DNA from: an uncultured bacterium
Lineage (GTDB): Bacteria > Patescibacteriota > Kazan-3B-28
Reading direction: 5' to 3'
Assembly: GCA_963695435.1 (NCBI GenBank)
Contig: OY968788.1
Location: forward strand, 134,330-198,329
Length of the DNA stretch: 64,000 nt
Part shown: positions 911 to 55,100 of the stretch, piece by piece
Numbering within the stretch: position 1 is the first letter of the stretch
How the letters are laid out: each line of letters begins with the position of its first letter
Program-made: the position numbers and the translations under genes
Notes under the pieces: model-generated
The model's database searches: none
Told to the model about the DNA's origin: nothing
What the model saw: only the letters and a program-made list of their open reading frames with translations

Positions 911-945
911 TTCCGTCATTCCCGCGAAGGCGGGAATCTATTTTT
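911..945. repeat. short palindromic element gtcattcccgcgaaggcgggaatctattttt (family D)
   Basis: Hairpin cccgc-gaag-gcggg. A near-identical copy tgtcattccagcgaaggctggaatctattttt lies at 5422-5452. Confidence 0.6.
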
Positions 946-1334
946 CCTGGATCCTCTGGTCAAGCCAGAGGATGACAGACGGGGGCTATAGGAGGAAATG
1001 TGGCCGGGTTGCCCCCGAAAAGCGCCTTTGGCGCCTCGGGGCTGTATCCCAAGAAATACAGTCTGGGAGCGAGAAAACCCTTGACTGGAAGCCGATTTTA
1101 GAGTATACTTAAGTGAAATGAGCTTGGGGGGTGGCATATTTCTAAATATCCACCTGTCTTATGAAAGTGTACCAAAAGATAATCGACTTTACGGGGATGG
1201 AGTTCAATCGGGAGAACCACCCAAGTTCCAGACTGCGTGAGCGGTCGGCTGATTATAAATCAAGAAAAGCATCAGGTAACAACAATGTTGCCCGCAATGT
1301 TCGAAGCATTTTCCAGAGCTTTTTAGGTTTCTAA

Positions 1335-1428
1335 AAAGGATGTCATTCTGAACGAAGTGAAGAATCTATAAGATTCTTCCTTTTGTTTTAGATCCTTCGC
1401 CCCGATAAATCGGGACTCGAGGATGACA
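1335..1428 (+). repeat. ~95-bp MITE/REP-like element, family E copy 1
   Basis: gtcattctgaacg...gaagaatctat...ttttagatccttcgccccgataaatcgggactcgaggatgaca. Matches the reverse complement of 2669-2750 and partially 34163-34256. Imperfect terminal inverted repeats gtcatyc/gratgac. Confidence 0.7.
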
Positions 1429-1431
1429 TTG

Positions 1432-2622
1432 CTATGTCAGTTTTAGGAAATTCCGTTTGCCGACTTGGAGGACCAAGTCGGTTTTTGGTTTCACGACAAA
1501 GCCGATATCAGTAATGGTGATGTCGCCTAGTTTTACCCCGCCCTGATGAATCAGTCGGCGAGCTTCAGAATTGGAACCTGCCAGTTTGTTTTTGACCAGC
1601 AAGTCTAAAATCGACATTGGTTTGGCAAGTTTTATTGTTTTGATGTCGCTTGGTGCGGAGTGTTTCTGGAAGACGGAGACGAAATCATTTTGAGCTTTAT
1701 CAGCTTCTTTTTTGCCGTGATACATCGAAACAATGGTGTGAGCCAACCGCATTTTCAAATCACGAGGGTTATTCTTTTTGTTCGCCAGTTCCTTTTTGAT
1801 TTTGGCGAGTTCCGCCGTGCTGACATTGGTTGCCAAATCAAAGTAGGTGTAAATGATGCTATCTGGAATAGACATCACTTTTCCGTACTGGCTTTTGGCA
1901 TCTTCGGTAATGCCGATGTAGTTATTCAAAGACTGACTCATTTTTTGGACGCCGTCAGTACCGACAAGGAGCGGAACAGCGATGATAGCTTGCGGAATTT
2001 GTCCAAAATCTTTCTGCAAATCTCTTCCTCGCATTTCATTGAAAAGCTGGTCGGTGCCAATTACGGTGGCATCATCTTTCAACATCACCGAATCGTATCC
2101 TTGCAAGATAGGATAGACCAATTCGTGGAAGCCAATCTCTTCGCCTTTTTTGATTCTCTTTTGGAACATATCTCGTTCAATCATTTGGGAGTGGGTGAAG
2201 TGCGACATTATTTTCAGCAAATCTTCGGCGGACATTTTATCGTGCCATTCGCTGTTGTAACGGATTTCAGTCTTTTTCGGATTTAATATGACCATTACTT
2301 GTTTCAGGTAATTGTTCGCTGACTTCAGTACTTCTGCTTTGGTGCGGAGTTTGCGGGATTGGTCGCGGTCAGTTGGGTCGCCAAAACGGCCGGTGAATCC
2401 GCCGATTAAAAATTGAACAGTGTGGCCGAGGTCCTGAAACTCGCGGAGCTTGTGATAGACCACGCCGTAGCCGATATGCAAATCGGGAGTGGTTGGGTCC
2501 ACGCCGTGTTTGATTTTCAGTTTTTTACCTGAAAGAAGTTTTGCGCGAAGCTCTTTTTCGCCAATCATTTTTTCAACTCGGCGAGAGAGCAGGGAATCGA
2601 TTACTTTTTTGTCTATTGCCAT
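1432..2622 (-). CDS. tyrS: tyrosyl-tRNA synthetase
   Basis: GVDPTTPDLHIGYGV (HIGH-like), GGFTGRFGDPT, KMSQS (KMSKS-like), C-terminal S4-like domain. Confidence 0.9.
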   Translation of the reverse strand: MAIDKKVIDSLLSRRVEKMIGEKELRAKLLSGKKLKIKHGVDPTTPDLHIGYGVVYHKLREFQDLGHTVQFLIGGFTGRFGDPTDRDQSRKLRTKAEVLKSANNYLKQVMVILNPKKTEIRYNSEWHDKMSAEDLLKIMSHFTHSQMIERDMFQKRIKKGEEIGFHELVYPILQGYDSVMLKDDATVIGTDQLFNEMRGRDLQKDFGQIPQAIIAVPLLVGTDGVQKMSQSLNNYIGITEDAKSQYGKVMSIPDSIIYTYFDLATNVSTAELAKIKKELANKKNNPRDLKMRLAHTIVSMYHGKKEADKAQNDFVSVFQKHSAPSDIKTIKLAKPMSILDLLVKNKLAGSNSEARRLIHQGGVKLGDITITDIGFVVKPKTDLVLQVGKRNFLKLT

Positions 2623-2668
2623 AAAGATATTGTATCACCCCAAGATTAGAGAATAGAGAGTAGAGAGT

Positions 2669-2750
2669 GGTGTCATCCTCGAGGTCGCCTAGGCGACCGA
2701 AGGATCTAAAATATCTTTCATAGATTCTTCCTAGCGTCAGAATGACAAAG
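2669..2750 (-). repeat. family E element copy 2, inverted relative to copy 1
   Basis: The reverse complement reads ctttgtcattctgacgctaggaagaatctatgaaagatattttagatccttcggtcgcctaggcgacctcgaggatgaca, which aligns with 1335-1428. Confidence 0.7.
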
Positions 2751-2832
2751 TAAGGGGGCGGGAATGACAAAAAATGAGGTCGGGAGACAGGGCGGGTAAA
2801 TGGTATAATAGGGGTCGTATCAGGTTAGAAAT

Positions 2833-5388
2833 ATGAGTGAACTCATGCCGTTTGGTCCCAGACACGAGATAGATAAGATTCGCCGTCAAATGAAGGCGCG
2901 GTCTTTGGGTAGAAAAGCAAAGAAGAGGGTTTTCACTTTTCTGTCTCGGTATGGCATCAATACTCCGCCAAAGTTGTTTTTGGCGGGGTTTATCGCCGTT
3001 CTTTTTGTATTCAGTTTCACGATGGCGGTGGTTTCAGTTGGACTTCCGAACCCTGCTAGATTGGTAATTTATGCGGCGACTGATTCGACTAAAGTATTCG
3101 ATCGTGACGGTGCCGTACTTTATGACATCTCAAACGGGAAAAACCGCACAACGATTCCTTTTGAGCAAATGCCTGAAGATTTGAAGAATGCAACTATCGC
3201 TATTGAGGATAAAGATTTTTATCATCACAACGGTTTTGATATCAAAGGATTTTTGCGCGGGACAATTTTGAAACCACTTGCGGGGCAAGGTTTTCAGGGT
3301 GGCTCAACAATTACCCAGCAGTTTGTGAAAAATGCGTTGTTAAGTTCGGAGAGAAGTGTCTTACGCAAAGCGCGAGAATTGATTTTGGCATTTGAGTTGG
3401 AAGCGGTTTATTCCAAAGATAAGATTTTGGAATTGTATTTGAATGAGATTCCATACGGCAGCGGGGCATACGGGGCGCAACAGGCGGCTAAAATGTATTT
3501 TGGGAAAGATGCCAAGGATATTAATTTAGCAGAAGCAGCGGTGTTGGCGGCGTTGCCGCAAGCACCGGGGAGATATTCCCCTTACGGACAAAATCCGGAT
3601 TTGCTGATGTTGCGTAAAGATTTGGTTTTGGCGCAGATGGAAAAGCAGGGCTACATCACCAAGGCGGAGGAGGTGGATGCCAAAAAGACGGAAATAAAGT
3701 TTCAACCTCGGAGGGATTCGATTCGCGCTCCTCATTTTGTAATGTATGTAAAAGAATTGTTGGCGGCGAAGTATGGCGAAAAGGTGTTGGAAGAGGGTGG
3801 ACTGCAAATCACCACTACATTAGATATTGATAAACAAAAGGCGGCGGAAGATACAATCGCTAATTTAGCGGAATCCAACAAAACGAAATACAACGCAGGC
3901 AACGCGGCGTTAGTTTCAATCGATCCAAATACGGGAGAGATTTTGGCGATGGTGGGGAGTAAAGATTATTTTGATATGGAGGCGGAAGGAAATGTAAATG
4001 TGGCAATTCGTGAACGGCAACCTGGTTCGTCTATCAAACCGCTTGTTTATGCCACTGCGTTCAAAAAAGATTATGCTCCTGCAACAATGCTGGTGGATGT
4101 GTCCACTGATTTTGGTCAGGGGTATCGGCCACGCAACTATGACGGAGGTTTTCGCGGACCGATTTCTGCTCGGGAGGCGTTGGGCAACTCTATCAACGTT
4201 CCTGCGGTAAAGACATTGGCGTATGCGGGGGTGCAGGACACGATTGATACTGCGCATGATATGGGAATCACTACGCTAAACGGCGGAGCAGACAGATACG
4301 GACTTTCGCTCACATTGGGAGGCGGAGAAGTTACTTTGTTTGATTTGACTCGCGCGTATGGTGTGTTTGCGACGGGCGGAAATCTGACACCGACAATGGC
4401 AGTTTTGAAAGTGACGGACAAATTTGGTCATGTGTTGGAAGAAAACGAACCTGAAAAATCTAAGCAAGTTTTGGATCCGCAGGTGGCGTATTTAATAAAT
4501 AGTATTTTGTCGGATGACAGTGCGCGCGCTCGAGTATTTGGAATGGGCGGGCTACTGACGTTGCCTGGCAGAACAGTTGCGGCGAAGACGGGTACAACAA
4601 ACGATTACAAAGATGGTTGGACAATAGGCTACACTCCTGATTTGGTGACAGGAGTTTGGGCGGGGAATAATCACAACGAAGAAATGACTGCCTCATCAGC
4701 AATGGTGGCGGCGCCAATGTGGAATAGATATATGAAGTTGGCACTGGCTGGTGTACCAAATAAATCTTTCAGCAGACCTGATGGAATTTCGGATGTGATG
4801 GTGGATGCCTTGTCGGGCAAGTTGCCGGTTGAAGGTGTGACGCCAACAACAAAGTCAGAAGTGTTTGCGAGCTGGAGCGTACCGAAAGAAATGGACAATG
4901 TGCATGTGGTGAAAAAAGTAATGAAGAGCGACACCAGCAAATTAGCACCAGCAAATGCACCTGCGGAATTAACTGAAGATAAAGTATTTACTGTAATTCA
5001 TTCGGAACGGCCGAGTAGTTCAAATTGGGAAGGTCCAGTTCTGGCATGGGCGGCGGCAAATGGATATAACAATGTCCCAACGGAAACTTATTCTGGTTCG
5101 ATGGATGGGAGTGCGACGGCGGAAATTACTTTGACGAATCCGATAGAGGGGGCAACGGTTACGGGAGATTTGTTAGTTTCAGCGAGTGTTAGAGCGGGGG
5201 TAGGTGTGAAGAGAGTTGAGTTTTATTATGATAATTCGCTGAAAGGACAGGTGACAGGAGCGCCGTATCAATTTACGATTAAAGCTCCCAAGCAAGACGG
5301 GAAGACACATACCGTTAGGGTTAGATTGCTCAAGGCTGATAATAGTACTGCAGAGGATAGTGTAAGTATTGTTGCTGGTGGAGGATAA
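2833..5388 (+). CDS. class A penicillin-binding protein (transglycosylase + transpeptidase) with a C-terminal Ig-like extension
   Basis: GT51 motifs EDKDFYHHNGFD and GGSTITQQFVKN; transpeptidase SSIKP (SxxK) and KTGTTND (KTG). Confidence 0.9.
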   Translation: MSELMPFGPRHEIDKIRRQMKARSLGRKAKKRVFTFLSRYGINTPPKLFLAGFIAVLFVFSFTMAVVSVGLPNPARLVIYAATDSTKVFDRDGAVLYDISNGKNRTTIPFEQMPEDLKNATIAIEDKDFYHHNGFDIKGFLRGTILKPLAGQGFQGGSTITQQFVKNALLSSERSVLRKARELILAFELEAVYSKDKILELYLNEIPYGSGAYGAQQAAKMYFGKDAKDINLAEAAVLAALPQAPGRYSPYGQNPDLLMLRKDLVLAQMEKQGYITKAEEVDAKKTEIKFQPRRDSIRAPHFVMYVKELLAAKYGEKVLEEGGLQITTTLDIDKQKAAEDTIANLAESNKTKYNAGNAALVSIDPNTGEILAMVGSKDYFDMEAEGNVNVAIRERQPGSSIKPLVYATAFKKDYAPATMLVDVSTDFGQGYRPRNYDGGFRGPISAREALGNSINVPAVKTLAYAGVQDTIDTAHDMGITTLNGGADRYGLSLTLGGGEVTLFDLTRAYGVFATGGNLTPTMAVLKVTDKFGHVLEENEPEKSKQVLDPQVAYLINSILSDDSARARVFGMGGLLTLPGRTVAAKTGTTNDYKDGWTIGYTPDLVTGVWAGNNHNEEMTASSAMVAAPMWNRYMKLALAGVPNKSFSRPDGISDVMVDALSGKLPVEGVTPTTKSEVFASWSVPKEMDNVHVVKKVMKSDTSKLAPANAPAELTEDKVFTVIHSERPSSSNWEGPVLAWAAANGYNNVPTETYSGSMDGSATAEITLTNPIEGATVTGDLLVSASVRAGVGVKRVEFYYDNSLKGQVTGAPYQFTIKAPKQDGKTHTVRVRLLKADNSTAEDSVSIVAGGG

Positions 5389-5419: not shown

Positions 5420-5535
5420 TTTGTCATTCCAGCGAAGGCTGGAATCTATTTTTATTTAATTGTTTTGAAGCGCCGAATCGCGCTTCAGCGATTGTTACTT
5501 TCCGCTTGAGGAAAGTAACCAAAGTCGCTCGCCAG
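5420..5535. repeat. composite dispersed repeat: family D hairpin followed by family A (two hairpins gaagcgccgaatcgcgcttc and gttactttccgcttgaggaaagtaac)
   Basis: A near-identical ~85-bp copy lies at 43975-44057. Partial copies at 6863-6900 and 36598-36625. Confidence 0.8.
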
Positions 5536-5712
5536 TCGCTTTCACTCTGAATCTCCCAAAATCCTCTCCATCTGCTTATCACCAAACTCGCTACGCTCAG
5601 ACATGGGCACGCTGATTGGAGGGATTTTGGGGATTCAGTACGCTCAAGCTCCAATGGCGGAAATAAAAGAGGATTGATACACTAATGGTGTAATAATTAT
5701 ATTATTGACAAT

Positions 5713-5731: not shown

Positions 5732-6034
5732 ATGAAAATAGAGCTGAAAGTTTTAGAATATGTTGCAGATTTTTTGGATGACTTACCAGTGGAGTTATAC
5801 GCTAGATGTGTAAAGAAGTTGAAGCTTTTTGAAGAATTTGGCTTTTTATTGTCAAAGACTGATCTAAAGAAGATCAATAAAAATATTTGGGAGTTGCGTC
5901 CGGGGGACATCAGAATTCTAATAGGTAAAGCGAAGGGCTGTATGTGGGCATTACACGCATTTCCCAAGACAAGTCAGAAAACGCCTATAAAAGAGATTAA
6001 GTTGGCAGACAAACGTTTAAGAGAATTAAGATGA
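5732..6034 (+). CDS. HigB/RelE-family (Gp49-like) type II toxin
   Basis: IWELRPGDIRILIG...HAFPKTSQKTP matches the Gp49/HigB pattern. Stop overlaps the next start (ATGA). Confidence 0.7.
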   Translation: MKIELKVLEYVADFLDDLPVELYARCVKKLKLFEEFGFLLSKTDLKKINKNIWELRPGDIRILIGKAKGCMWALHAFPKTSQKTPIKEIKLADKRLRELR

Positions 6035-6330
6035 GCAAGAAAAAATTCTACACAGTTAGTGAGATAGAAAAGAGAGCGATGAAGAGTCCGAGTTTTCGTC
6101 GGGCTTACGAAGCATTAGAGCCCGAGTATCAAATTGCTAGGGCGGTAATACAGGCGCGTCACAAAAAGGGGATGACGCAAGGAGAATTGGCTCGAAAGGC
6201 GGGAACTAAGCAACCTGTTATTGCGCGTTTGGAGAGCATGAAGAGCCCTGCTTCTTCCAAGAGTATGGGGCGAATTGCTCATGCACTTGATCTTCGCTGG
6301 GAACTAAAGTTAGTGCCGAAGACCAGATAA
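6031..6330 (+). CDS. HigA-like XRE-family HTH antitoxin
   Basis: GMTQGELARKAGTKQPVIARLE is a Cro/C1 HTH. 4-bp overlap with the upstream toxin gene. Confidence 0.7.
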   Translation: MSKKKFYTVSEIEKRAMKSPSFRRAYEALEPEYQIARAVIQARHKKGMTQGELARKAGTKQPVIARLESMKSPASSKSMGRIAHALDLRWELKLVPKTR

Positions 6331-6339
6331 CGGTTCTCT

Positions 6340-6415
6340 TTAGGTCACTAGGTCACTAATGGACTTATGGTCTGTCTATTTGTCTATGAGTCTATTGTCT
6401 ATTATTCTACCCTTG
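6340..6415 (+). repeat. family C repeat with reiterated gtctat/tggtct sub-motifs
   Basis: taggtcactaggtcactaatggacttatggtctgtctatttgtctatgagtctattgtctatt. The reverse complement of 22395-22470 is closely similar. Confidence 0.6.
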
Positions 6416-6765: not shown

Positions 6766-6862
6766 TATAGATTTTTTTGTTTTCTTGTCCTCGGGCTTGA
6801 CCCGGGGATCCAAACATTTTTTTATTTAGTTTTTCAAGGGTCTGCGCGACCCTTGTACCGCG

Positions 6863-6900
6863 GTTACTTTCCGCTTGAGGAAAGTAACCAAAGTCGCTTG
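6863..6900. repeat. family A partial copy (gttactttccgcttgaggaaagtaaccaaagtcgct)
   Basis: Identical core hairpin to those at 5497-5535 and 44021-44057. Confidence 0.75.
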
Positions 6901-7098
6901 CCCACGTCGTCGGAACTATCAATTGGCAAAAATCATCTTTCCGCTAATGGTCGAAACTCGGTCGTAGCCACTCCCTCAAACATCTCCCCGCGGCGATGAT
7001 TTTACTCAATTGATTACATTCCTCCTCCTATGGCAGGGGAAGTTGACTGAGGGGAGGATTACTGATATAAGGGATATTATAGTAAACTGAATTAGGAC

Positions 7099-7701: not shown

Positions 7702-8379
7702 GTGGGGTATAATCTAGACATGAGCCAGCTCCCAGCAATACAAATTGTTTCTAAACAGCGAGTCTCTGATCACGGAGAGGTTTTTACATCCGAGAGGGAG
7801 GTAAACGCGATGCTTGATCTCGTAAAGCAGGAAACGGAGCGTATAGACTCACGTTTTCTTGAGCCGGCCTGCGGGACTGGTAACTTTTTAGTCGAGATTT
7901 TAAAAAGAAAGTTAGAAATAGTTAAAGGACGATATTCAAAGAACCAGATCGAATTCGAGCGTTATTCGGTCATCGCAATCTCGAGTATCTATGGAGTGGA
8001 CATCTTAGAGGACAATGTTATTGCATGTCGAGAGAGACTATATTCTGTTTTCGATGAGCACTATAACTCACTTTATACGGATAGGTGTAAAAAGGAATGC
8101 AAAGTAGCCGTCAGATTTATCTTGTCTCGAAATATATTATGGGGTGATGCCTTGACTTTTAAAGAGCCAAACGAAGAGGCTCGGCCAATTATTTTTTCTG
8201 AATGGAGCGCGGTAAACGGCAATCTGATCAAGAGGCGGGATTATACATTGGCTAATCTTCTTGAGAATCGGTCTCCCGAGGAAGGGACTTTGTTCTCTGA
8301 TATGGGGGACCGAGCTTTTGTTCCTAGACCAATTGCAGATTTCCCTTTGACACACTTTTTAGGCCTTGGAGTAGAATGA
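7702..8379 (+). CDS. Eco57I-type N6-adenine DNA methyltransferase N-terminal module (motifs X and I only; truncated paralogue of the next gene)
   Basis: GEVFTSEREVNAMLDL and FLEPACGTGNFLVEIL (motif I), YGVDILE. No NPPY. 4-bp overlap (ATGA) with the next ORF. Confidence 0.6.
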   Translation: MGYNLDMSQLPAIQIVSKQRVSDHGEVFTSEREVNAMLDLVKQETERIDSRFLEPACGTGNFLVEILKRKLEIVKGRYSKNQIEFERYSVIAISSIYGVDILEDNVIACRERLYSVFDEHYNSLYTDRCKKECKVAVRFILSRNILWGDALTFKEPNEEARPIIFSEWSAVNGNLIKRRDYTLANLLENRSPEEGTLFSDMGDRAFVPRPIADFPLTHFLGLGVE

Positions 8380-9875
8380 TGCAGACAAGTTATAACCCAG
8401 ACGTATTATCCTGTCTTGCCAACCTAAGTAATGATGAAGTTTTCACTTCACCAGCACTAGTAAATCAGATTCTAGACCTGCTGCCGAGTGATTTGTGGCA
8501 GAATAAGGGGGCTAAGTTCCTTGACCCGGTTACTAAATCAGGTGTGTTCCTAAGGGAAATTGCCTCTCGTTTAATTGTTGGTCTGGAAAAAGAAATCCCA
8601 GATCTACAAAAACGCATAAACCACATTTATCAAAATCAGCTTTATGGCGTCTCTATCACCGAACTCACCTCGTTTTTATCTCGCCGAAGCGTTTATTGCT
8701 CAAAGACAGCCAAAGGCAAGTACTCAGTTTGTGATAATTTCAAAAATGAACAAGGTAATATCATCTTTGACCGCATAGAGCACGCATGGATGAATGGAAA
8801 ATGTAAGTACTGTAATGCGAGCCAATCACTACACGATAGAGGTGAACTATTAGAAACTCATGCATATCAATTTATTCATACAAATGAACCAAATAAAATA
8901 TTTAATAATATGAAATTTGATGTAATCGTAGGTAATCCACCCTATCAGTTAAATGATGCTGGTGCACAATCTAGCGCAAGCCCGATTTATCATTATTTTG
9001 TCGAGCAGGCTATTAAGCTGAAACCTCAATATCTTTCAATGATTATTCCTGCTCGCTGGTATTCGGGCGGAAAGGGGCTTGATGATTTTAGAAGTAAAAT
9101 GTTGAATGATGAGAGGATCTCTGAAATTCATGATTATCCAGAGACTTCTGATTGTTTTCCGGGATTGAATATTAGAGGTGGTGTTTGTTATTTTCTTTGG
9201 GATAAGGAGCATACCGGTAAGTGTAAAGTGACTACGCATAAATCTGGAACTGTTGGAAAAACAGTTGAACGATCTTTGTTGGAGAAAGGTAGAGATGTGT
9301 TCATTAGATACAATGAGGCAATAAACATTTTACGGAAAGTTCAAGCATCAGATGAAGATTCTTTTTCAAGCTACGTCAGCGTTCGCAAGCCTTTTGGTTT
9401 ATCAACTGACACTAAGGGTAGGCCAGAACATTTTAAAGATAGCGTAAAGCTCTATCAAAATGGTGGGGTTGGGTATATCAAAAGGTCAGAAGTGGCAAAA
9501 AATGCTGGGTGGATAGATAAAACCAAGGTAATAGTTCCATATTCTAGTCCCGGGGACGATTCGTATCCACATTTGATTTTAAGTAAACCGATTATTGCTG
9601 AGACTAACTCATGCAGTACGGAAACCTATTTAGTTGTGGGTCCTTTTGACTCGAAACTTACATGCGAAAACGTAAGCTCTTACCTTAAAACTAGATTTGT
9701 AAGATTCTTAATACTTCTTCTTAAGCCGACTCAGCACGTTACCCAGAAAACATATGGCTTTGTCCCTGTCCAAAATTTTAAAGAAAAATGGACGGATGAA
9801 AAATTGTATAAGAAGTATGGTATCACGCAAGACGAAGTCAAATTTATAGAGTCGCTGATTCGGCCGATGGATTAA
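8376..9875 (+). CDS. Eco57I/Type IIG-III-like N6-adenine DNA methyltransferase
   Basis: DEVFTSPALVNQILDLL, a degenerate motif I FLDPVTKSGVFLREI, YGVSITE, motif IV VIVGNPPYQ. Confidence 0.7.
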   Translation: MMQTSYNPDVLSCLANLSNDEVFTSPALVNQILDLLPSDLWQNKGAKFLDPVTKSGVFLREIASRLIVGLEKEIPDLQKRINHIYQNQLYGVSITELTSFLSRRSVYCSKTAKGKYSVCDNFKNEQGNIIFDRIEHAWMNGKCKYCNASQSLHDRGELLETHAYQFIHTNEPNKIFNNMKFDVIVGNPPYQLNDAGAQSSASPIYHYFVEQAIKLKPQYLSMIIPARWYSGGKGLDDFRSKMLNDERISEIHDYPETSDCFPGLNIRGGVCYFLWDKEHTGKCKVTTHKSGTVGKTVERSLLEKGRDVFIRYNEAINILRKVQASDEDSFSSYVSVRKPFGLSTDTKGRPEHFKDSVKLYQNGGVGYIKRSEVAKNAGWIDKTKVIVPYSSPGDDSYPHLILSKPIIAETNSCSTETYLVVGPFDSKLTCENVSSYLKTRFVRFLILLLKPTQHVTQKTYGFVPVQNFKEKWTDEKLYKKYGITQDEVKFIESLIRPMD

Positions 9876-9880
9876 TTAAA

Positions 9881-12385
9881 ATGAGTAAATTTTTTCCACA
9901 ACGGCCGGAGGCGAACCCAGCAATTTACGCCTACGAAGACACAAACCCACAATACGAGGGTTTATTAAAAGTTGGTTTTACCACTACGGATGCTCGAGCT
10001 CGAGTGGCACAACAATACCCAACACGACGCCCAGGGGTATTACCTTACAAGATAGTTTTTGAAGAATCGGCTATGCGCAATGATGGCACTATTTTAACTG
10101 ACCATGATGTGCATCGTTATTTGCGCAAAAAAGGTATCGCAAACCCCAAAGGAGAATGGTTTAAGTGCAGTATAAAGGAAATCACTGCAGCTGTATTGGC
10201 TATTAAGAGTGGCGTTAAGAACGAAGATGATCGGACTCTTAGTTTTAGCATGCGGCCAGAGCAAGAAGAAGCAGTAGAGAAAACTATTTCGTATTTTAAG
10301 AGCTTTAGTAAAGAGAACAAGGGTAAAACTCCACACTTTCTTTGGAATGCAAAAATGCGTTTTGGGAAAACATTCGCTACATATCAGTTGGCAAAAAAAA
10401 TGGGATGGAAAAAAATACTAGTACTTACATTTAAGCCGGCAGTGCAGAGTGCTTGGGATGAGGATCTTCAAACACACATCGATTTTAAGGGTTGGCAATT
10501 TATTGCACCAAATGGTTTAACATTTGGGAGAGCTAATAAGAAAAATCCTTTTGTGTGCTTTGGTTCATTTCAGGATTATTTGGGGAAAAATACATCAACA
10601 GGCGGGATTAAAACGAAGAATGAATGGGTGCATGCTACCAATTGGGATTGTGTGGTATTTGATGAATATCATTACGGAGCTTGGCGAGAGAATGCAAAGG
10701 ATTTATTTGAAGCAGAGGGGGAAAGAGAGTTGGAATTTGGAGAGGGGGAGGGTATTGAGTATTTTGATGAAGGTGCAATGCCGATCACTACTAACGCGTA
10801 TCTGTATTTGTCTGGTACGCCATTTAGAGCTATTGCGTCTGGTGAGTTTATTGAAGAACAAATTTTCAACTGGACCTATTCGGATGAGCAGCGGGCAAAA
10901 GAGAATTGGAAGGGTGAGCCAAACCCGTATGCTTCTTTGCCAAGAATGGTGATGCTGACTTATCAACTGCCTGATTCTATCCGTGAAGTTGCCATGAAGG
11001 GGGAATTTAATGAGTTTGATTTAAACCTCTTTTTTAGTGCGGAGGGACTAGGAAGGAATGCAAAATTTAAATATGAAGATGAGGTTCAAAAATGGTTGGA
11101 CTTGATTCGAGGCTCTTTTTCCGAAACAACGATAGATAATTTAAAATTGGGGGCAAAAAAACCACCATTACCTTTCTCACACGCACCTTTACTAAATGTT
11201 CTATCACATACATTTTGGTTCTTGCCAAGTGTTGCTTCTTGCTATGCGATGAGAAATTTACTTGAACAAAGGCAAAATAAGTTTTATCACAACTACAAGG
11301 TGATTGTTGCGGCTGGGACTAGCGCGGGAATTGGTGTAGCGGCGCTCCCGCCAGTACAGCAGGCAATGGAAGATCCTCTAAGCTCAAAAACCATAACTCT
11401 ATCTTGTGGCAAACTTACAACAGGGGTGTCGGTCAAGCCATGGACAGGGATTTTTATGCTACGTAATTCGTCAAGTCCTGAAACTTATTTTCAAGCGGCT
11501 TTTCGTGTACAAACGCCTTGGACCGTGAATAACCCTGATAGTAAATCGCCCAATAAAGAAGAGGTTATCAAACAAGAGTGCTATGTTTTTGACTTTGCGC
11601 CGAACCGAGCTCTCAGACAAATTGCCGACTACGGTTGCCGTCTGAATGTAAATGAGTCTAACCCTGAAAAGAAAATTGATGAATTTATCCATTTTTTACC
11701 TGTGCTTGCTTATGACGGTAGTGCCATGAAGCAAATTGATGCGGCAGGTATCTTGGATATGGCAATGAGCGGCACTACCGCCACCTTGCTTGCAAGAAGG
11801 TGGGAAAGTGCGCTACTGGTCAATGTCGATAACAACACCTTGCAGCGTTTGATGAATAACCAAGACGCGATGGATGCCTTAATGAGTATTGAAGGTTTCC
11901 GTAGTTTAAATAAAGACATTGAGACTATTATTAATAAATCGGAAGCTGTACAAAAAATAAAGAAAGAGGCAAACGATAAAGAGTTAACTCCCAAGAAAGA
12001 GAAAGAGTTGAGCAAAGAGGAGAAAGAGTACAAAAGTATAAGAAAACAGATTCAGGAAAAACTTATAAAATTTGCTACTCGCATTCCGGTATTTATGTAT
12101 CTAACTGATTATCGCGAGAGAAGCTTGAAGGATGTTATTACCAAGCTTGAACCAGGTTTATTTAAAAAAGTAACAGGTCTTTCTGTTAAAGATTTTGAAC
12201 TATTGGTTAGCCTTGGTGTTTTTAATAGCGCACTCATGAATGATGCGGTGTATAAGTTTAAGAGATATGAGGACGCAAGTCTAGCGTATACGGGTATTAA
12301 TAAGCATGAGGGTGAGGATATTGGTCTTTATGACACAGTTATCAGTAACAAAGAATATAGGCAGACATTTGAAAATCATGAATAA
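9881..12385 (+). CDS. T5orf172 (GIY-YIG-like) domain fused to an SF2/ResIII-type helicase; candidate restriction (Res-like) subunit
   Basis: N-terminus IYAYEDT..EGLLKVGFTTTDARARV..GEWFKCSIKEI (T5orf172 pattern). Helicase motif I MRFGKTF, motif II VVFDEYHYG, motif III LSGTPFR, motif VI QAAFRVQTP. K/E-rich C-terminus. Confidence 0.7.
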   Translation: MSKFFPQRPEANPAIYAYEDTNPQYEGLLKVGFTTTDARARVAQQYPTRRPGVLPYKIVFEESAMRNDGTILTDHDVHRYLRKKGIANPKGEWFKCSIKEITAAVLAIKSGVKNEDDRTLSFSMRPEQEEAVEKTISYFKSFSKENKGKTPHFLWNAKMRFGKTFATYQLAKKMGWKKILVLTFKPAVQSAWDEDLQTHIDFKGWQFIAPNGLTFGRANKKNPFVCFGSFQDYLGKNTSTGGIKTKNEWVHATNWDCVVFDEYHYGAWRENAKDLFEAEGERELEFGEGEGIEYFDEGAMPITTNAYLYLSGTPFRAIASGEFIEEQIFNWTYSDEQRAKENWKGEPNPYASLPRMVMLTYQLPDSIREVAMKGEFNEFDLNLFFSAEGLGRNAKFKYEDEVQKWLDLIRGSFSETTIDNLKLGAKKPPLPFSHAPLLNVLSHTFWFLPSVASCYAMRNLLEQRQNKFYHNYKVIVAAGTSAGIGVAALPPVQQAMEDPLSSKTITLSCGKLTTGVSVKPWTGIFMLRNSSSPETYFQAAFRVQTPWTVNNPDSKSPNKEEVIKQECYVFDFAPNRALRQIADYGCRLNVNESNPEKKIDEFIHFLPVLAYDGSAMKQIDAAGILDMAMSGTTATLLARRWESALLVNVDNNTLQRLMNNQDAMDALMSIEGFRSLNKDIETIINKSEAVQKIKKEANDKELTPKKEKELSKEEKEYKSIRKQIQEKLIKFATRIPVFMYLTDYRERSLKDVITKLEPGLFKKVTGLSVKDFELLVSLGVFNSALMNDAVYKFKRYEDASLAYTGINKHEGEDIGLYDTVISNKEYRQTFENHE

Positions 12386-14882: not shown

Positions 14883-14936
14883 GGTAGAGGAGCAAGCAAA
14901 AAGGAACTTTTGTTTTTCTATTTGTTTTATCTTTGC

Positions 14937-14975
14937 ACAATTAGCTGAACGGCCGTTCAGCTAATTGTGAGGGTA
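14937..14975. repeat. 35-bp palindromic element caattagctgaacggccgttcagctaattgtg (copy 1)
   Basis: Perfect palindrome ttagctgaacggccgttcagctaa. A second copy lies at 15510-15545. Confidence 0.8.
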
Positions 14976-15045: not shown

Positions 15046-15517
15046 GGTGAAGAACAGTCGGGGGGCGTACAGACTGATGAAAGCATTGTTCCGTTTGATG
15101 GACGGCAATGGTGTAGTCCGACTCAATAAACATTGGCAAGAAAAACTTCGCGACCCTCGCCAACATGGCGATGGTCGCTCGTTTAAATATTTGCGTGATG
15201 CGGAATATCTTATTGAGCTGGGGCCGGATAAATATGAAGTGACGGATTTGGCAAAAATTAACTTATTGAAAGAAATTGTTAAGACGCGTAAGAGGGACGG
15301 GAAGTTGAGGCTTGTGATTTTTGATATTCCTGAAAGATTGAAAGCGAATAGAAATTTTTTCCGTCGGCATTTGGTGGATATGGAATTTCAGATGAGACAG
15401 CAAAGTGTATGGGTATCGCCATATCCATGCGAGGACTTAGTTGCTTTGGCTGTGAAATATCACGGTTTGCAGAAATATGTCGAACTAATAGTCGGCAAAG
15501 TAGGCACAATTAGCTAA
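15046..15517 (+). CDS. winged-helix regulator with C-terminal Cas2-like (PaaX-like) domain
   Basis: C-terminal LRLVIFDIPERLKANRNFFRRHLVDMEFQMRQQSVWVS follows the Cas2/PaaX_C pattern (LVxYDI...R..FRR.L...GF...Q.SVW). Start is ambiguous (GTG at 15046 or ATG at 15077). Confidence 0.55.
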
Positions 15518-15545
15518 ACGGCCGTTCAGCTAATTGTGTAGGGGA
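15510..15545. repeat. 35-bp palindromic element copy 2 (overlaps stop codon of the preceding gene)
   Basis: caattagctaaacggccgttcagctaattgtg. Confidence 0.8.
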
Positions 15546-19638: not shown

Positions 19639-19800
19639 CGTCGAAATGGCTTCGCCCGACGCGCGAACAAGTAAAACTTGTTCGGCTATTGAGGCTCAGC
19701 ATTTCTCCTTTCAAAATCACAAACAGTCGTTTTACTCCTTGGTTTGCGATTTTGGCTTAGGGGAGGACATAGTTGACAGATAGGGCGACCTATTTCATAA
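19639..19800 (+). repeat. post-tRNA conserved element, family B copy 1 (ends in a ttgaca-17-cataat promoter)
   Basis: cgtcgaaatggcttc...cggctattgaggctcagcatttctcc...ccttggtttgcgattttggctt...ttgaca. The homologous copy lies at 54925-55100. Confidence 0.75.
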
Positions 19801-19802: not shown

Positions 19803-19814
19803 CCCCTTGTTATG

Positions 19815-19960
19815 CCCCGTAGAGAAATTTAGAACGCCCTTGGGCTAAAGCTATATTCTCTGCGGAAAAGCATGATTCTGATGAGTTATCGTTAGGGCAG
19901 GTTTATTAGGATAATGCCCAAGGCGAGGAGAGAATATAACTTCTAAATTCTTCTACGGGG
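19815..19960 (+). repeat. MITE-like structured element, family F copy 1, forming the 5-prime leader of rplK
   Basis: ccccgtagagaaatttagaa ... agagaatataacttctaaattcttctacgggg (terminal and internal inverted repeats). The second copy lies at 41303-41450. Confidence 0.75.
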
Positions 19961-19961
19961 T

Positions 19962-20463: not shown

Positions 20464-21282
20464 ATGCTAGAGAAGAAAGTTGTCACTAAAAAAGTGACGA
20501 AGAAGGCGGTTAAGAAACCTAGTGCGGGAGATGAATCCTCCTACGCCAAGGCTACGAAGGACATCGGAGCTAAGAAAAAGATAGCTCCTCGTAAGTTTGG
20601 GCGAGGGAAGAAATATCTCGCTGTTTTGCCGAAGGTAGATAAGGAAAAGTTTTATCCGGCAGATGAGGCGATTAAGTTAGCGCAGGAAACTTCCCCGAGC
20701 AAATTTGATGCAACGATAGAGTTGCATGTTTGTATGGGGTTGGATCCAAAGAAGCCTGAGCAAAATATCCGCGGAACTGTTTCGATGCCAGCCGGAACGG
20801 GCAGAACTAAAAAGATCTTGGTTTTGGCGGAGGAAGCAGATGCAAAGAAAGCATTGAGCGCGGGAGCAGATTACGCTGGTCTTGAAGATATGATTAAGAA
20901 AATCCAAGAAGGTTGGATGGATTTTGATTTGGTAATTGCAACACCAACAGCAATGCCTCAAGTTGGAAAACTTGGGCAGACATTGGGGACCAAAGGTTTG
21001 ATGCCAAATCCAAAATCAGGAACTGTTGCGCCTGATGTCGCGAAGGCAGTTGAAGAATTCAAAAAAGGAAAAGTTGAATTTCGTTTAGACAAAGACGCGA
21101 TTATTCATTTGGGGTTTGGGAAAGTTTCATTTAAGACAGAAGATTTGATGACGAACTTCAAAACGATTGTGAGCGCTATTCAATCGGCGAAACCTGCGGC
21201 GTCTAAAGGGTCTTACATCAAACGGATGTCAGTGGCTTCGACGATGGGGCCGGGGATCAAAATCGATCTTCAATCAATCTAA
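20464..21282 (+). CDS. rplA: 50S ribosomal protein L1 with Lys-rich N-terminal extension
   Basis: ELHVCMGLDPKKPEQNIRGTVSMPAGTG. Confidence 0.92.
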   Translation: MLEKKVVTKKVTKKAVKKPSAGDESSYAKATKDIGAKKKIAPRKFGRGKKYLAVLPKVDKEKFYPADEAIKLAQETSPSKFDATIELHVCMGLDPKKPEQNIRGTVSMPAGTGRTKKILVLAEEADAKKALSAGADYAGLEDMIKKIQEGWMDFDLVIATPTAMPQVGKLGQTLGTKGLMPNPKSGTVAPDVAKAVEEFKKGKVEFRLDKDAIIHLGFGKVSFKTEDLMTNFKTIVSAIQSAKPAASKGSYIKRMSVASTMGPGIKIDLQSI

Positions 21283-21284
21283 AG

Positions 21285-21390
21285 CTCTCGAGAGAAGAAC
21301 GAAGGTATGTTCCTCTCTCGACGCTCGTGGGCAAAGCCCATTTCGACAAGTCGAAACAAGCTCACTGCTCTTACCTCCACCTAAAAGATA
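21285..21390 (+). repeat. ~105-bp structured repeat, family G copy 1 (directly after rplA stop)
   Basis: ctcgagagaagaacgaaggtatgttcctctctcgacgctcgtgggcaaagcccatttcgacaagtcgaaacaagctcactgctcttacctccacctaaaaga. Almost identical to 23564-23668. Confidence 0.85.
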
Positions 21391-21520
21391 GAAAAGGAGA
21401 CCGTCCTGCTGTACAGCGGGGCGGTTTTTGTTTGGTGTATAATTTGGGTAAGGAACGACCGACCGATTTTGTAGGGGGCGGGGTTTCGGTATTGTAACTT
21501 ACAAATGAGGAGGTGAGGGG

Positions 21521-22394: not shown

Positions 22395-22470
22395 TTATAA
22401 CTAGACTAATAGACGATAGACCAATAGACAAATAGCTATAAGTCCATTAGTCCATAGACCATAAGTCCAA
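22395..22470 (-). repeat. family C repeat copy 2 (inverted)
   Basis: ctagactaatagacgatagaccaatagacaaatagctataagtccattagtccatagaccataagtcc is the reverse complement of the 6340-6415 pattern. Confidence 0.6.
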
Positions 22471-23017: not shown

Positions 23018-23560
23018 ATGGAGAATATTATGGCAGATGAAAATACAATTCCAGAAGAGCAAGCTCCAGAAGCTTCCACCTCCGCTGAAGCTACGGTGGA
23101 CGTTCCGGTAGAAGCTCCAAAGGAAGATAAGAAAGTAGACAGTATGTCTACTGAAGCCTCGGCGAAGGTAGATGCAAGCAAGTTGTCAGGCAATGCCAAA
23201 AAAGTTTTGGACATGGTTAGTGAGATGACAGTGCTTGAGTTGGCTGAGCTCGTGAAAGTATTGGAAGACAAGTTCGGCGTGAGTGCCGCGCCTGTTGCCG
23301 TTGCCGCCGCTGGTGGTGCTGGTGCTGGAGCTGCAGCCGTCGAAGAGAAGAGCGAATACAACATTAACTTGGTTAATGCTGGTGCCAACAAAATCAACGT
23401 GATTAAGGCAGTTCGCGAAGTGACCGAGTTGGGCTTGAAAGAAGCCAAAGACTTAGTCGAAGGCGCACCAAAAATGGTGAAAGAAAATGTAAAGAAGGCG
23501 GACGCAGAAGAGATTAAGAAGAAATTAGAAGCCGCAGGTGCCAAAGTCGAGTTACAATAA
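23018..23560 (+). CDS. rplL: 50S ribosomal protein L7/L12 (with acidic N-terminal extension; true start may be internal)
   Basis: Ala/Gly-rich hinge and [28 protein letters not shown]. Confidence 0.9.
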
Positions 23561-23563
23561 AAT

Positions 23564-23668
23564 ATCTCGAGAGAAGAACGAAGGTATGTTCCTCTCTCGA
23601 CGCTCGTGGGCAAAGCCCATTTCGACAAGTCGAAACAAGCTCACTGCTCTTACCTCCACCTAAAAGAA
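23564..23668 (+). repeat. family G copy 2 (directly after rplL stop), followed by terminator at 23680-23710
   Basis: ~99% identical to 21285-21390. Terminator is gaagccccgccgaaaggcggggcttttt. Confidence 0.85.
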
Positions 23669-23817
23669 AGAATAAAGAAGCCCCGCCGAAAGGCGGGGCT
23701 TTTTGGTCTCTATTTGACCTTGGGGGCAGATGTGCTATCTTGCGGGTGGCGTGTTTTTGGCTCTAGAAGCCAAAAAGCGACTACTAGCTATTTGACATTT
23801 AGAAGGGGGTGATAACA

Positions 23818-34003: not shown

Positions 34004-34162
34004 CTTATTATTTCATTTTAGCACAAAAGAGAGATTGTGTCAAGATAGGGCGAGGAGAGAGTGTGGAGTGGGAGTTGATTTTTTGGGGGGAACAGGGTAG
34101 ATTGGGGGCTGTGGTAAGCGAGTTATGAGTAATGAGTTACGAGTAATGAGCGAAGCCACGGG

Positions 34163-34256
34163 ATATATAGTATAGATCCTTCCCCCGACAAGTCGGGGTC
34201 GAGGATGACAAATTTTTATGAGATTCTGAAATAAATTCAGAATGACGGGATAATAC
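34163..34256. repeat. family E partial copy 3 plus gattctgaa..ttcagaatgac hairpin
   Basis: tagatccttcccccgacaagtcggggtcgaggatgacaaa matches the 3-prime half of 1335-1428. Confidence 0.6.
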
Positions 34257-36503: not shown

Positions 36504-37138
36504 ATTTTTCTTTTTCTTTATTCTTTTTTGTCATTCTGAACTTATTTCAGAATCTTTTTATTTATTTTTTCCAGCACTCACGCCGTGCTGATGGTGGCGG
36601 TTACTTTTCTAGAAAAGTAACACAAAAGTTCCCGCCAGTCGTCGGGATTGTTCGCCCCTGCCTACCGGTAGGCAGGTAACAAAATTAGCTTTCTTCGCTA
36701 TCGGCAAACTCCCCCGATAGCCATCGGGGTCAAACATGCCTTCGCCTGCGCTAATTTTGTCGGCTCAATACATCCCTCCTCCAATGGCGGACTAAAGAAA
36801 GGATGGGGGATAAAAAACAGTCCTGCACTTGGGGCAGGACTGCTTGGTTCGGGTGGAGATGAGCTACAACCGTATCTGGCGAAAGGCGCGGTGGTACTTT
36901 TCCGAACCAACGGACAAAGGTGCGGCTGTTTTTTGCGATGGGAGGAGTTGGAAATTATTTTTTCCAGAAGTCCAGTGTCGGGTGTGTGAATATCAAGGGG
37001 GGATGAGGGGTAGACCGAGTATCCCTAGCAGGAGGGCTGGTCTACATTGAAGCCGACATTGGAATATCTCCGCACCTAATCGCAAAAATGTGCCGCAATG
37101 AATTGTAGCACTTATCTGATAGTAGGCAATAGAGGGTC
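36504..37138. other. 635-bp non-coding region dense in palindromes/hairpins (candidate structured ncRNA or repeat cluster)
   Basis: No ORF above 75 aa. Hairpins gtcattctgaa..ttcagaatc, gttacttttctagaaaagtaac, cctgcctaccggtaggcagg, cagtcctgcacttggggcaggactg. Confidence 0.4.
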
Positions 37139-41251: not shown

Positions 41252-41302
41252 ACCGTTGCCAAGCCCGTTCCATAGGATAGAATAGGGACAGGTTTCAGCA
41301 TG

Positions 41303-41450
41303 CCCCGTAGAGAAATTTAGAACGTCTTGGGCGTAGATTATATTCTCTGATGGGGAAATACAACCACAACTGGTTTGTAATGCTATAGTTGAAGGTTCAT
41401 ACATGTCCAAGCCGAGTGAGAGAATATAATTTCTAAATTCTTCTACGGGG
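41303..41450 (+). repeat. family F copy 2, forming the leader of ftsA
   Basis: ccccgtagagaaatttagaacgtcttgggcgtagattatattctct...gagagaatataatttctaaattcttctacgggg. The last g is the first base of the GTG start at 41450. Confidence 0.75.
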
Positions 41451-42670
41451 TGAAAGAGAAAATTGCTGTTGGTATAGACATCGGCGATTCTAAAGTGGTG
41501 ACAGTAATTGGTCACCGTGCCGAAGGTGAAATACACCCCAGTGTTGTGGGAGTGAGTATTCATGAAGGTTCAGGAATGCGGCGTGGTGTGGTGACGGACG
41601 TAGAAGAAGCAGTATCAGCAATTGCAAGTTCGATTGAAGAAGCGGAACGAATGGCGGGATTGCCTGCAGAAGCGGTTTACATCTCACTTGTGGGTGACCA
41701 CATCAATGCAACTAATAATAAAGGATTGGTGACGATTGCGCGGGGTAGAGAAGAAATTACTTACGAAGATGTTGTGCGGGTAAGAGAAGTGGCGCAGTCA
41801 GTGCCAATGTCGGTCAATCGGGAAATTTTGCATGTTATTTCCAAAACCTACACGGTGGACGGGCAGGACGGTATCAAGGACCCGGTGGGGATGTCGGGGG
41901 TGAGGTTGGAGGTGGATGCTCATGTGATTACTGGTTCAACTCCTTTTATCAAGAATATTAGGAAGACGGCAGAGCAGGCGGGGGTGGCAGTTGCTGGTTT
42001 TGTTTTAGGTCCATTGGCCGCCGCTAAGGCGGTACTTTCAAAAAAGCAGAAAGAACTGGGAGTGGCGCTGATCGATATTGGCGCAAGTACAACCGGGATG
42101 GTGGTTTTTGAAGAGGGTGGGATTTATCATTCGGCAGTGCTTCCCATTGGTTCCGATCATTTGACTCATGATATTGCGATTGGTTTGAGAGTTTCGTTAG
42201 ACACGGCGGAGAAAATAAAATTGGAATACGGTGTGGCTAGCCCGGTTATGTTATCGGACAAAGACACAATTGATTTATCTAAAATTGATAAAGATGAAGA
42301 ACAGATAATTTCGCGCAGATATGTTGCCGATATTATTGAAGCAAGATTGGCGGAATTATTTTTGATGATAAAGTCGGAGTTACGGAAAGTCGGTCGCGAC
42401 GGCGTATTACCAGCCGGAGCGGTGTTGGTGGGCGGAGGAGCGAAGTTGGCCGGGATTGTTGAATCAGCCAAAAGTCACCTCGGTCTTCCCACACAACTGG
42501 GTTTTCCAGTCGAATTGAAGGGGATGGTTGACAAACTAGATGACCCCCGGTTCGCGACCGCCATCGGATGCATGCTGTGGGGTATGGATGAGGACAGTAG
42601 CCAGAGCAATTTCCCAACTTTGGATTTTGCGGCGATCGTCTCTCGGATAAAAAACATCTTCACCAAATAA
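41450..42670 (+). CDS. ftsA: cell division protein FtsA
   Basis: Actin-like fold motifs VGIDIGDSKV, LIDIGASTTGMVVFE. Confidence 0.88.
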   Translation: MKEKIAVGIDIGDSKVVTVIGHRAEGEIHPSVVGVSIHEGSGMRRGVVTDVEEAVSAIASSIEEAERMAGLPAEAVYISLVGDHINATNNKGLVTIARGREEITYEDVVRVREVAQSVPMSVNREILHVISKTYTVDGQDGIKDPVGMSGVRLEVDAHVITGSTPFIKNIRKTAEQAGVAVAGFVLGPLAAAKAVLSKKQKELGVALIDIGASTTGMVVFEEGGIYHSAVLPIGSDHLTHDIAIGLRVSLDTAEKIKLEYGVASPVMLSDKDTIDLSKIDKDEEQIISRRYVADIIEARLAELFLMIKSELRKVGRDGVLPAGAVLVGGGAKLAGIVESAKSHLGLPTQLGFPVELKGMVDKLDDPRFATAIGCMLWGMDEDSSQSNFPTLDFAAIVSRIKNIFTK

Positions 42671-43940: not shown

Positions 43941-43975
43941 GCGAGAGACGACCGCTAATTGGCGGTCGTTTTCTT
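43941..43975 (+). terminator. rho-independent terminator
   Basis: gagacgaccgctaattggcggtcgttttcttttt. Confidence 0.7.
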
Positions 43976-44057
43976 TTTATTTAATTGTTTTGAAGCGCCG
44001 AATCGCGCTTCAGCGATTGTTACTTTCCGCTTGAGGAAAGTAACCAAAGTCGCTCCC
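43975..44057. repeat. family A copy 2 (two-hairpin element)
   Basis: tttatttaattgttttgaagcgccgaatcgcgcttcagcgattgttactttccgcttgaggaaagtaaccaaagtcgct is near-identical to 5452-5535. Confidence 0.85.
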
Positions 44058-44250
44058 CACTCACAAATTGCTATCCAAAATAGAAAATCAGACCTTTCTG
44101 GACTATACGCTATACTCGCTACGCTCAAACAACGCTATCCATACCGGCTGATTTTCTAATTGGATAACGCAATTTGCTCGATGGGGTTGGGACAAAGGAG
44201 AAAGCCCGGCGCGGAGACGCAGGGCTTTGAGGAATGCAGGTTTGGGCATG

Positions 44251-44448: not shown

Positions 44449-44687
44449 GATTGACTCCGATGGTACAAATTCATCAGCAGTGTAAGGGAGGGTGGGGATA
44501 AAAGCAAGGGATAGGTGGTGTGAGAGCTGATTTAGGGTAGTACAAGATATAGGGGTATTATTAGTCTTACATACACAACATACGGTAGAGAGTAGAGTTT
44601 AGAGAGTAGAGTCTGGCTGGTAACTCTTGGAACTTGTTTGTAAATTTTTCTCTATTCTCTCGTCTCTGTTCTCTAATCTCTAATTTT

Positions 44688-54924: not shown

Positions 54925-55100
54925 CGTCGTCGAAATGGCTTCACGCTACGCACGAGCTCGACAAGTTTGCTCGGCTATTGGCGTTCAGCATTTCTCCTCT
55001 CCCCAAAATGTTCGCTACGCTGGAACATTTCGGGGACCCCATTTTAGGGCTCCTTGGTTTGCGATTTTGGCTTTGGGACTGGGGAAGGTTGACTTATGGG
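54925..55100 (+). repeat. post-tRNA conserved element, family B copy 2 (ends in ttgact-17-taagat promoter-like region)
   Basis: cgtcgaaatggcttc...cggctattggcgttcagcatttctcct...ccttggtttgcgattttggctt...gttgac parallels 19639-19800. Confidence 0.75.

Follow-up and report, generated by a model that had tools for sequence, protein, structure and literature searches.

The gene tyrS in the genome of an uncultured bacterium of the Patescibacteriota (Kazan-3B-28) stands between inverted copies of a short repeat, the family E element, within a 64,000-nt stretch of contig OY968788.1 (positions 134,330 to 198,329 of the forward strand; GenBank assembly GCA_963695435.1; G+C content 44.8%) that is hereafter called the window. 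An earlier note on this stretch had described the repeat as either a mobile miniature element that targets gene boundaries or a conserved structured leader or trailer RNA. We consider it probable that the element consists of two oriented DNA hairpins, paired modules of the type formed by the Neisseria repeat NTS and the wider Ssn-related motif (SRM), the targets of Ssn nucleases. This degree of confidence is meant jointly for the best explanation as a whole, in which the modules are of SRM type, the composite copies are gene-less miniatures of a cassette that carries an ssn gene, the copies are lineage-specific insertions, and the repeats are linked to an Ssn-like nuclease.

Structure of the hairpin modules

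A composite element consists of two hairpin modules facing each other. Every module begins with GTC, continues with a palindrome that opens with ATYC and closes with GRAT, and ends with C, a form found in 10/10 intact modules of the window, all of which are intergenic. The modules fall into A arms (ATTC...GAAT) and B arms (ATCCTC...GAGGAT), the latter often with an inner hairpin that varies between copies while its pairing persists (for example CCCGA/TCGGG, GGTCGCC/GGCGACC, and CCCCGAC/GTCGGGG). Single-stranded DNA folds of the modules and composites gave z-scores of − 3.0 to − 5.5. In a covariation scan of the modules from the window and the fetched loci (n = 66) that left stem position 3 free, this position held T-A in 45 modules, C-G in 15, and G-C in 2, such that 62/66 were Watson-Crick pairs; the hairpin stems are under structural constraint. 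A coarser test of inner-hairpin pairing on scan matches yielded 2.4 pairs vs 2.3 in shuffles.

Inverted copies were confirmed on either side of tyrS (1432-2622, minus strand; Pfam tRNA-synt_1b, 4e-69), namely c2 (1342-1427, 86 nt) and c3 (2672-2746, 75 nt), whose arms stand in opposite order. The description of 1335-1428 as the reverse complement of 2669-2750 was borne out as block-wise similarity and was otherwise overstated: a global alignment of c2 with the reverse complement of c3 gave 65 matches in 95 columns (68%), the identity being concentrated in four blocks (GTCATTCTGA, GAAGAATCTAT, TTTTAGATCCTTCG, and CTCGAGGATGAC) while the inner hairpins differ. The c2 A arm (1342-1366, plus strand) reads GTC, ATTCT...AGAAT, C; the c2 B arm (1391-1427, minus strand) reads GTC, ATCCTCGAG, inner hairpin, CGAAGGAT, C, and lies 4 nt from the tyrS stop codon. 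The c3 B arm (2672-2706, plus strand) has a different inner hairpin (GGTCGCC/GGCGACC) and is situated between the divergent − 10 boxes of tyrS and the gene for penicillin-binding protein 1A (PBP1A; 2833-5388, plus strand), and is followed by the c3 A arm (2723-2746, minus strand). The terminal repeats GTCATYC/GRATGAC that the earlier note had seen were present at the ends of c1 (below), c2 (GTCATTC from 1342, GGATGAC to 1427), and c3 (GTCATCC from 2672, GAATGAC to 2746).

The third copy reported near 34163-34256 is real (c4, 34175-34246) and is more than the partial copy it was taken for, as both arms are present, standing in tandem on the minus strand and not inverted: a B arm (34175-34209, inner hairpin CCCCGAC/GTCGGGG) and an A arm (34222-34246) upstream of secD. 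A search of the window for further copies recovered a fourth composite, c1 (915-976), upstream of recG (minus strand, starting at 901), with an A arm at 915-938 (plus strand, GTCATTCCCGCGAAGGCGGGAATC) and a B arm at 949-976 (minus strand, GTCATCCTCTGGCTTGACCAGAGGATCC). Two solo A modules were also found on the plus strand, one 3′ of the PBP1A gene (5423-5446) and followed by the terminator-like CTATTTTTATTT, the other 3′ of secF (36530-36554) and followed by a terminator-like T run. The remaining traces were a decayed B-like module (6787-6811, plus strand; GTC--CTCGGGCTTGACCCGGGGATCC, with the AT lost) and a half-site, which is a truncated A module (2755-2768, minus strand; GTCATTCCCGCCCC), located within a 22-nt repeat of GAATGAC units present twice at 2740-2785. 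Runs of such half-sites (GGAATGAC, one arm of an A module), spaced roughly 15-22 nt apart, occur beside full elements both here (2740-2785) and in the Patescibacterial locus L034 (5270-5350), and may be footprints of truncated insertions.

Correspondence with the NTS/SRM repeats and Ssn nucleases

The NTS was defined as CGTCATTCCCGCGMAVGCGGGAATCYRG, together with the degenerate SRM (Chenal et al. 2025, Nat Commun, PMC11893778). Its nuclease, SsnA, is a 94-aa GIY-YIG protein that binds NTS hairpins solely as single-stranded DNA and solely on one strand, and cuts a few nucleotides upstream; cleavage depends critically on the three bases 5′ of the palindrome, and binding on the C at its 3′ side (PMC11893778). 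In the same study, ssnA genes were found to be typically flanked by the repeats as NTS-ssnA-NTS, a layout whose likeness to an insertion sequence was raised by the authors as speculation only (PMC11893778). NTS-gene-NTS arrangements lower transformation in Neisseria. No literature on such repeats together with a GIY-YIG nuclease was found beyond this paper.

The window hairpins resemble NTS/dRS3 and the SRM in their orientation, given by a GTC that precedes the palindrome and a C that follows, and in being intergenic, multi-copy, and clustered around genes. A single mismatch separates the c1 A arm with its flanks (914-941) from the NTS consensus, and an exact NTS is present in L034. The published SRM pattern matched the window twice (914-941 and 5422-5449, the latter covering the solo module 3′ of the PBP1A gene) vs 0.2 matches expected; with this excess, the fold z-scores, and the GTC and C flanks kept in all intact modules, the repeats are not due to chance. 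Unlike the systems described in Neisseria, the host is a Patescibacterium, a group absent from PMC11893778, and most window arms, among them the c2 and c3 arms, form longer semi-palindromes lying outside the published SRM pattern.

Among RNA families, Rfam RF02748 (FtrB, a small RNA of Francisella) aligned with the c1 region (897-1001) at 37.8 bits, below the gathering threshold of 66. The FtrB Northern probe contains GTCATTCCCGCGTAGGCGGGAATC (PMC3091763), and c1 holds the same pair of hairpins as FtrB, the NTS-like GTCATTCCCGCGTAGGCGGGAATC and a GATCC...GGAT hairpin, whereas the flanking parts of the FtrB model do not align and the score is sub-threshold. The resemblance is explained by a common repeat and not by a common small-RNA gene, and the Francisella FtrB itself appears to be a transcribed Ssn-type repeat.

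The ssn cassette in relatives and its gene-less miniatures

In related Patescibacteria and in many metagenome contigs, the same two arms enclose a gene: a B module lies just upstream of a GIY-YIG gene of about 100 aa, and an inverted A module lies at or over its 3′ end, as in the NTS-ssnA-NTS layout, where the single-domain GIY-YIG gene here encodes about 94-102 aa. In L034, a composite near-identical to c3 is found directly upstream of a GIY-YIG open reading frame (ORF; PF01541, 1.6e-13), and a second, inverted A arm overlaps the stop codon of this ORF. In three further loci (L047, L048, and L049), a B arm (GTCATCCTGAGCGAAGCGAAGGATCT) abuts the ssn ATG, and the ORF ends with ...FIDSSLRSE* inside an inverted A arm, the stop codon TGA falling within GAATGAC. 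The same cassette ends were present in L050, L034, and several metagenome loci, L050 and L051 likewise associating the repeat with ssn, and the neighbours of ssn differ between genomes. The Ssn-like proteins are 94-102 aa long and have Y17 and E64 at the positions of the residues mutated in PMC11893778, and DSS-type tails were found in 11 of the best 60 homologues. No NCBIfam family covered the L034 protein, and a search of the PDB returned no Ssn structure, the nearest entries being UPF0213 proteins (1e-5).

A protein search with the L034 ORF retrieved P0127, a 102-aa protein with 70% identity to it. In NCBI and ENA, P0127 is placed on one contig of 560,194 nt, as is the TyrS of the window, and we infer that the source genome encodes this Ssn-like protein outside the window and on the same 560-kb contig.

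The composites of the window carry traces of this gene. Read in reverse complement, the c2 A arm translates as KNLIDSSLRSE*, of which ...LIDSSLRSE* is the C-terminal tail of Ssn-like proteins (the P0127 tail is ESFIDSSLRSE*), and the arm agrees at 29/31 nt with the final 31 nt of the L047 and L050 ssn genes. The c3 A arm keeps SFIDSS*R, a remnant of the ssn 3′ coding end that is preceded by TTTCATAG, as in L034. A tblastn search of the window with P0127 matched nothing except the 11-aa tail, which it detected in both c2 and c3. Both cassette ends are joined by a 13-26-nt spacer in c2 and c3 and, less clearly, in c1. Because they have the same two ends, and because c2 keeps the last codons of the gene, c2 and c3 (and c1 less clearly) are, as judged from sequence, gene-less miniatures of the B-ssn-A cassette. 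Such two-arm miniatures that keep ssn 3′ codons were not described in PMC11893778, in which respect they differ from the systems reported there.

Gene-less composites, in which a B arm is joined to ...AGATTCTTC...GAATGAC, occur beside ssn in L047, L050, and L034, and also in several phyla. A metagenome scan found at least 120 loci with gene-less composites (123 matches among those listed); among the matches listed, 104 had GTCATCC upstream, the median length was 72 nt, and 102 sequences were distinct. An ssn-like ORF was also present in 7 of the metagenome loci among the matches listed, within 230 nt of a composite in 6/7. The frame of the B arm, searched for in a genome collection as GTCATCCTCGA-N8-26-GAAGGATCTA, yielded 41 loci from many phyla, including three Patescibacteria and one Saccharibacterium, and the source genome was not among them. 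This exact frame was seen once in a contig of a Promethearchaeota metagenome-assembled genome (L012) and once in an IMG/VR viral contig (L005).

Insertion history of the tyrS locus

The best named relatives by TyrS were genomes of the 'Patescibacteria group' and of candidate division Kazan. The order PBP1A-tyrS was kept in 6/6 relatives with 79-90% TyrS identity, and two of these (L001 and L003) also retained recG and the small ORF that is convergent with tyrS in the window (1161-1334, plus strand; 57 aa, conserved). The L002 contig ends soon after tyrS, and in L052 and L054 the region downstream differs. Within this conserved block, the elements of the window were missing from the relatives. 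The tyrS stop codon of L001 and L003 runs almost directly into the small ORF, at the spot that c2 fills in the window, where it occupies nearly all of the 97-nt gap between both stop codons. Upstream of tyrS, L001, L002, and L003 have only 48-68 nt, which hold two conserved extended − 10 boxes, as compared with 210 nt in the window that contain c3, the half-site, and a heptamer array. No modules were found at the c2 and c3 sites of L001-L003, and c1 is missing before recG in L001 and L003. Because the relatives keep the gene block without them, c1, c2, and c3 are, on the sequence comparison, recent lineage-specific insertions into the intergenic DNA of a conserved PBP1A-tyrS-small ORF-recG block.

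The inverted bracket formed by c2 and c3, the conservation of which had been proposed as a check, is not conserved in related genomes, which have different modules or none at tyrS. In L052 and L054 (90% TyrS identity), five or six modules form another mosaic on the upstream side of tyrS, and the downstream side has none. A composite at 1535-1589 in L052 unites the A arm of the window's c3 with the inner hairpin found in its c4 B arm; arms have therefore been reshuffled between copies. Most of the related loci examined carry modules at other places, at densities of 1.5-17 per 10 kb, and L001 carries none. In a Logan assembly with an identical tyrS, the contig is 1,302 nt long and breaks no more than about 80 nt from each gene end, roughly at the elements.

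The suggestion that tyrS sits in a composite cassette was not upheld, as the PBP1A-tyrS order persists in all six relatives while c2 and c3 are absent there; a mobile tyrS cassette is ruled out by conserved synteny. A conserved leader or trailer RNA is likewise contradicted, the elements being missing at the orthologous sites of these relatives. The earlier note had recognised no T-box upstream of tyrS, and our scan of 850-2900 agreed, with no T-box match on either strand at E ≤ 5 and the sub-threshold FtrB as the only hit; across the whole window, Rfam at gathering thresholds returned only 4 tRNAs. With regard to regulation, tyrS is ordinary: it has no T-box, no conserved leader, and no mobile cassette of its own.

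Weighing of the alternatives

The description of the repeat as a mobile miniature element at gene boundaries is supported in part, in that the element is miniature, multi-copy, hairpin-ended, sited at boundaries, and variable among related genomes, and its ends are those of a longer, gene-carrying unit; in that sense it is like a miniature inverted-repeat transposable element (MITE), but a classical MITE is not supported. A classical MITE would be a deletion derivative of a DDE-type insertion sequence, and as parts of a composite transposon its inverted copies would move tyrS as a unit. The terminal inverted repeats GTCATYC/GRATGAC and the inverted order of the two copies around a gene fit such an element. 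The ends and even the 3′ codons are shared with a longer unit, the ssn cassette, whose product is a nuclease and not a known transposase. The flanks of c1, c2, and c3, read from the sequence, share no direct repeat of ≥ 3 nt, so that no target-site duplication accompanies them; no DDE transposase was found among the scanned ORFs of the window; the neighbours of tyrS are the same in relatives without the elements; and tyrS is an essential single-copy housekeeping gene. We regard this explanation as the least probable of all. The Correia elements of Neisseria, as MITEs, offer a close comparison: both kinds are short (75-90 nt), non-coding, and numerous at gene boundaries, with inverted ends, can supply promoters or terminators, and are related to a longer gene-carrying unit with the same ends. 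The present elements differ from them in the missing target-site duplication, in a partner that encodes no known transposase, and in ends that are independent hairpin modules, occurring also singly, in tandem, and in other combinations. Hardly more credible is an element of the repetitive extragenic palindromic (REP) type, including bacterial interspersed mosaic elements (BIMEs) and REPINs, mobilised by a REP-associated tyrosine transposase (RAYT; an IS200/IS605-like Y1 HUH enzyme). The general layout is that of a REPIN or BIME, with extragenic palindromes, a conserved 5′ flank, inverted doublets, mosaic clusters, and no target-site duplications, and the likeness extends to a cognate enzyme gene that is flanked by the repeats and to DNA that is presumably recognised as a single strand. 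The gene between the arms in relatives and metagenomes, however, encodes a GIY-YIG nuclease and not a Y1 transposase, a scan of 45 window ORFs gave no match to Y1_Tnp or any transposase family, the modules have a conserved GTC flank in place of the GTAG of REP sequences, and Ssn is not known to carry out strand transfer.

A more serious, though still unlikely, alternative is that the hairpins serve mainly as signals in cis, at the RNA or DNA level, for the genes beside them (terminators of the intrinsic or bidirectional kind, stabilisers of mRNA 3′ ends, or a leader or trailer of tyrS), and are alike only through that function. A scan called part of the c1 arm (918-937) terminator-like, the solo modules at 5423 and 36530 lie 3′ of plus-strand genes and precede T runs (seen by eye), the modules of L002 and L003 likewise trail genes with T runs, c2 fills the gap between two convergent genes, and an NTS-like pair is transcribed as the small RNA FtrB in Francisella. 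Against this, c1, c3, and c4 occupy 5′ regions or divergent promoters, an invariant GTC and C on either side of the stem do not characterise terminators, neither a T-box nor any other Rfam family reaches its threshold, the elements are absent from the orthologous sites of close relatives, and in several genomes these arms enclose a gene for a nuclease. SRM-type modules derived from an ssn cassette are preferred, notwithstanding several points that weigh against them. The arms of c2, c3, and c4, with longer or bulged stems, fail the published SRM pattern, which is matched by just two short, perfect hairpins (at 914 and 5422). No GIY-YIG gene was found in the 64-kb window, either by phmmer with GIY-YIG sequences or by Pfam on 45 ORFs, the latter returning only housekeeping genes, a restriction-modification system, the toxin of a toxin-antitoxin pair, and a PD-(D/E)XK protein. 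The probable co-residence of P0127 with the window is deduced from the matching 560,194-nt size and sources of the contigs. The putative kinship of the Ssn-like proteins to the SsnA of N. meningitidis (cd10448) is drawn from the Pfam GIY-YIG match, protein size, Y17 and E64, and GIY-YIG query sequences standing in for SsnA, which scored 1e-28. The boundaries of the insertions are blurred by intergenic divergence, such that the event is placed only approximately, and cleavage, binding, and mobility of the Patescibacterial members are predictions.

Predicted activity and implications

By analogy with the Neisseria SsnA, P0127 would bind each hairpin only in single-stranded DNA and only on the GTCAT... 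strand, and would nick a few nucleotides 5′ of the GTC. Given the inverted arms, nicks would fall to the left and right of tyrS whichever strand of the region is exposed, a layout that would equal the NTS-gene-NTS arrangement known to lower transformation in Neisseria. A second role as transcription terminators is probable for the modules that precede T runs (5423 and 36530, together with the arm at 915-938). The miniatures probably spread through the Ssn nuclease acting in trans or through recombination between hairpins.

The element represents a MITE-like variant of the SRM/Ssn system, a known system that is hereby extended to Patescibacteria, and it bears on the role of Ssn nucleases outside Neisseria and on where their hundreds of hairpin targets came from. 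The gene-less copies with both ends and the last codons, the filled and empty orthologous sites, and a candidate nuclease in P0127 make the insertion-sequence idea for ssn testable. Patescibacteria have small genomes and are believed to rely on taking up DNA, and a nuclease able to cut single strands on entry, at sites marked as self, could be of consequence for them.

As a tentative extension, to which we attach distinctly less confidence than to the joint explanation above, the unit of about 340 bp formed by B hairpin, ssn, and inverted A hairpin may constitute a selfish mobile element in minimal form, with the Ssn nuclease as its sole gene product, and the gene-less 60-110-nt composites, including those at tyrS, its non-autonomous, MITE-like derivatives mobilised in trans. 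If this were so, Ssn would be the enzyme of a class of mobile DNA not recognised before, which has hairpin ends and leaves no target-site duplications, and this class would be spread over many phyla, including the reduced genomes of Patescibacteria.

Other repeats and genes in the window

An 89-nt repeat composed of two other hairpins (GAAGCGC.../GTTACTTTCC...) is present at 5449-5537, 6818-6906, and 43974-44062, with 2/3 copies directly 3′ of an Ssn-type module, a placement that suggests mosaic arrays like BIMEs or the neisserial intergenic mosaic elements (NIMEs). Intergenic tandem arrays of 7-8-nt units (AGAGTAG, GAGTAAT, AATAGAG × 7.4, and others) were found at 2643-2668, 6374-6409, 22402-22469, 34120-34150, 44585-44682, and 57883-57934, several of them just 5′ of genes, and a similar array precedes the tyrS − 10 box in L052. 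Ribosomal protein and tRNA genes are accompanied by repeats of other kinds: a 113-nt direct repeat (97% identical) after rplA (21281-21393) and after rplL (23560-23672) brackets tmk-rplJ-rplL, and a 74-nt repeat (78% identical; 19639-19712 and 54928-55001) lies immediately 3′ of tRNA-Thr(ggt) and tRNA-Val(cac). A repeat of about 150 nt with mutually complementary ends (CCCCGTAGAGAAATTTAGAA / TTCTAAATTCTTCTACGGGG), located upstream of rplK (19812-19961) and upstream of the ORF at 41450 (41300-41451), may be another miniature element or a conserved leader.

The 57-aa ORF downstream of tyrS (MKVYQKIIDFTGMEF...), which is conserved in L001 and L003 and matched no Pfam family, has a promoter-like site at 1081-1109 and a hairpin just 5′ of its start codon. 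Two near-identical 35-nt perfect palindromes (14935-14969 and 15504-15538) stand on either side of an ORF of 175 aa in which a PaaX central (Cas2-like) domain was recognised. At 7702-12385, a cluster of restriction-modification methylase genes of Eco57I/MmeI-like type adjoins a Gp49/HTH toxin-antitoxin pair (5732-6330).

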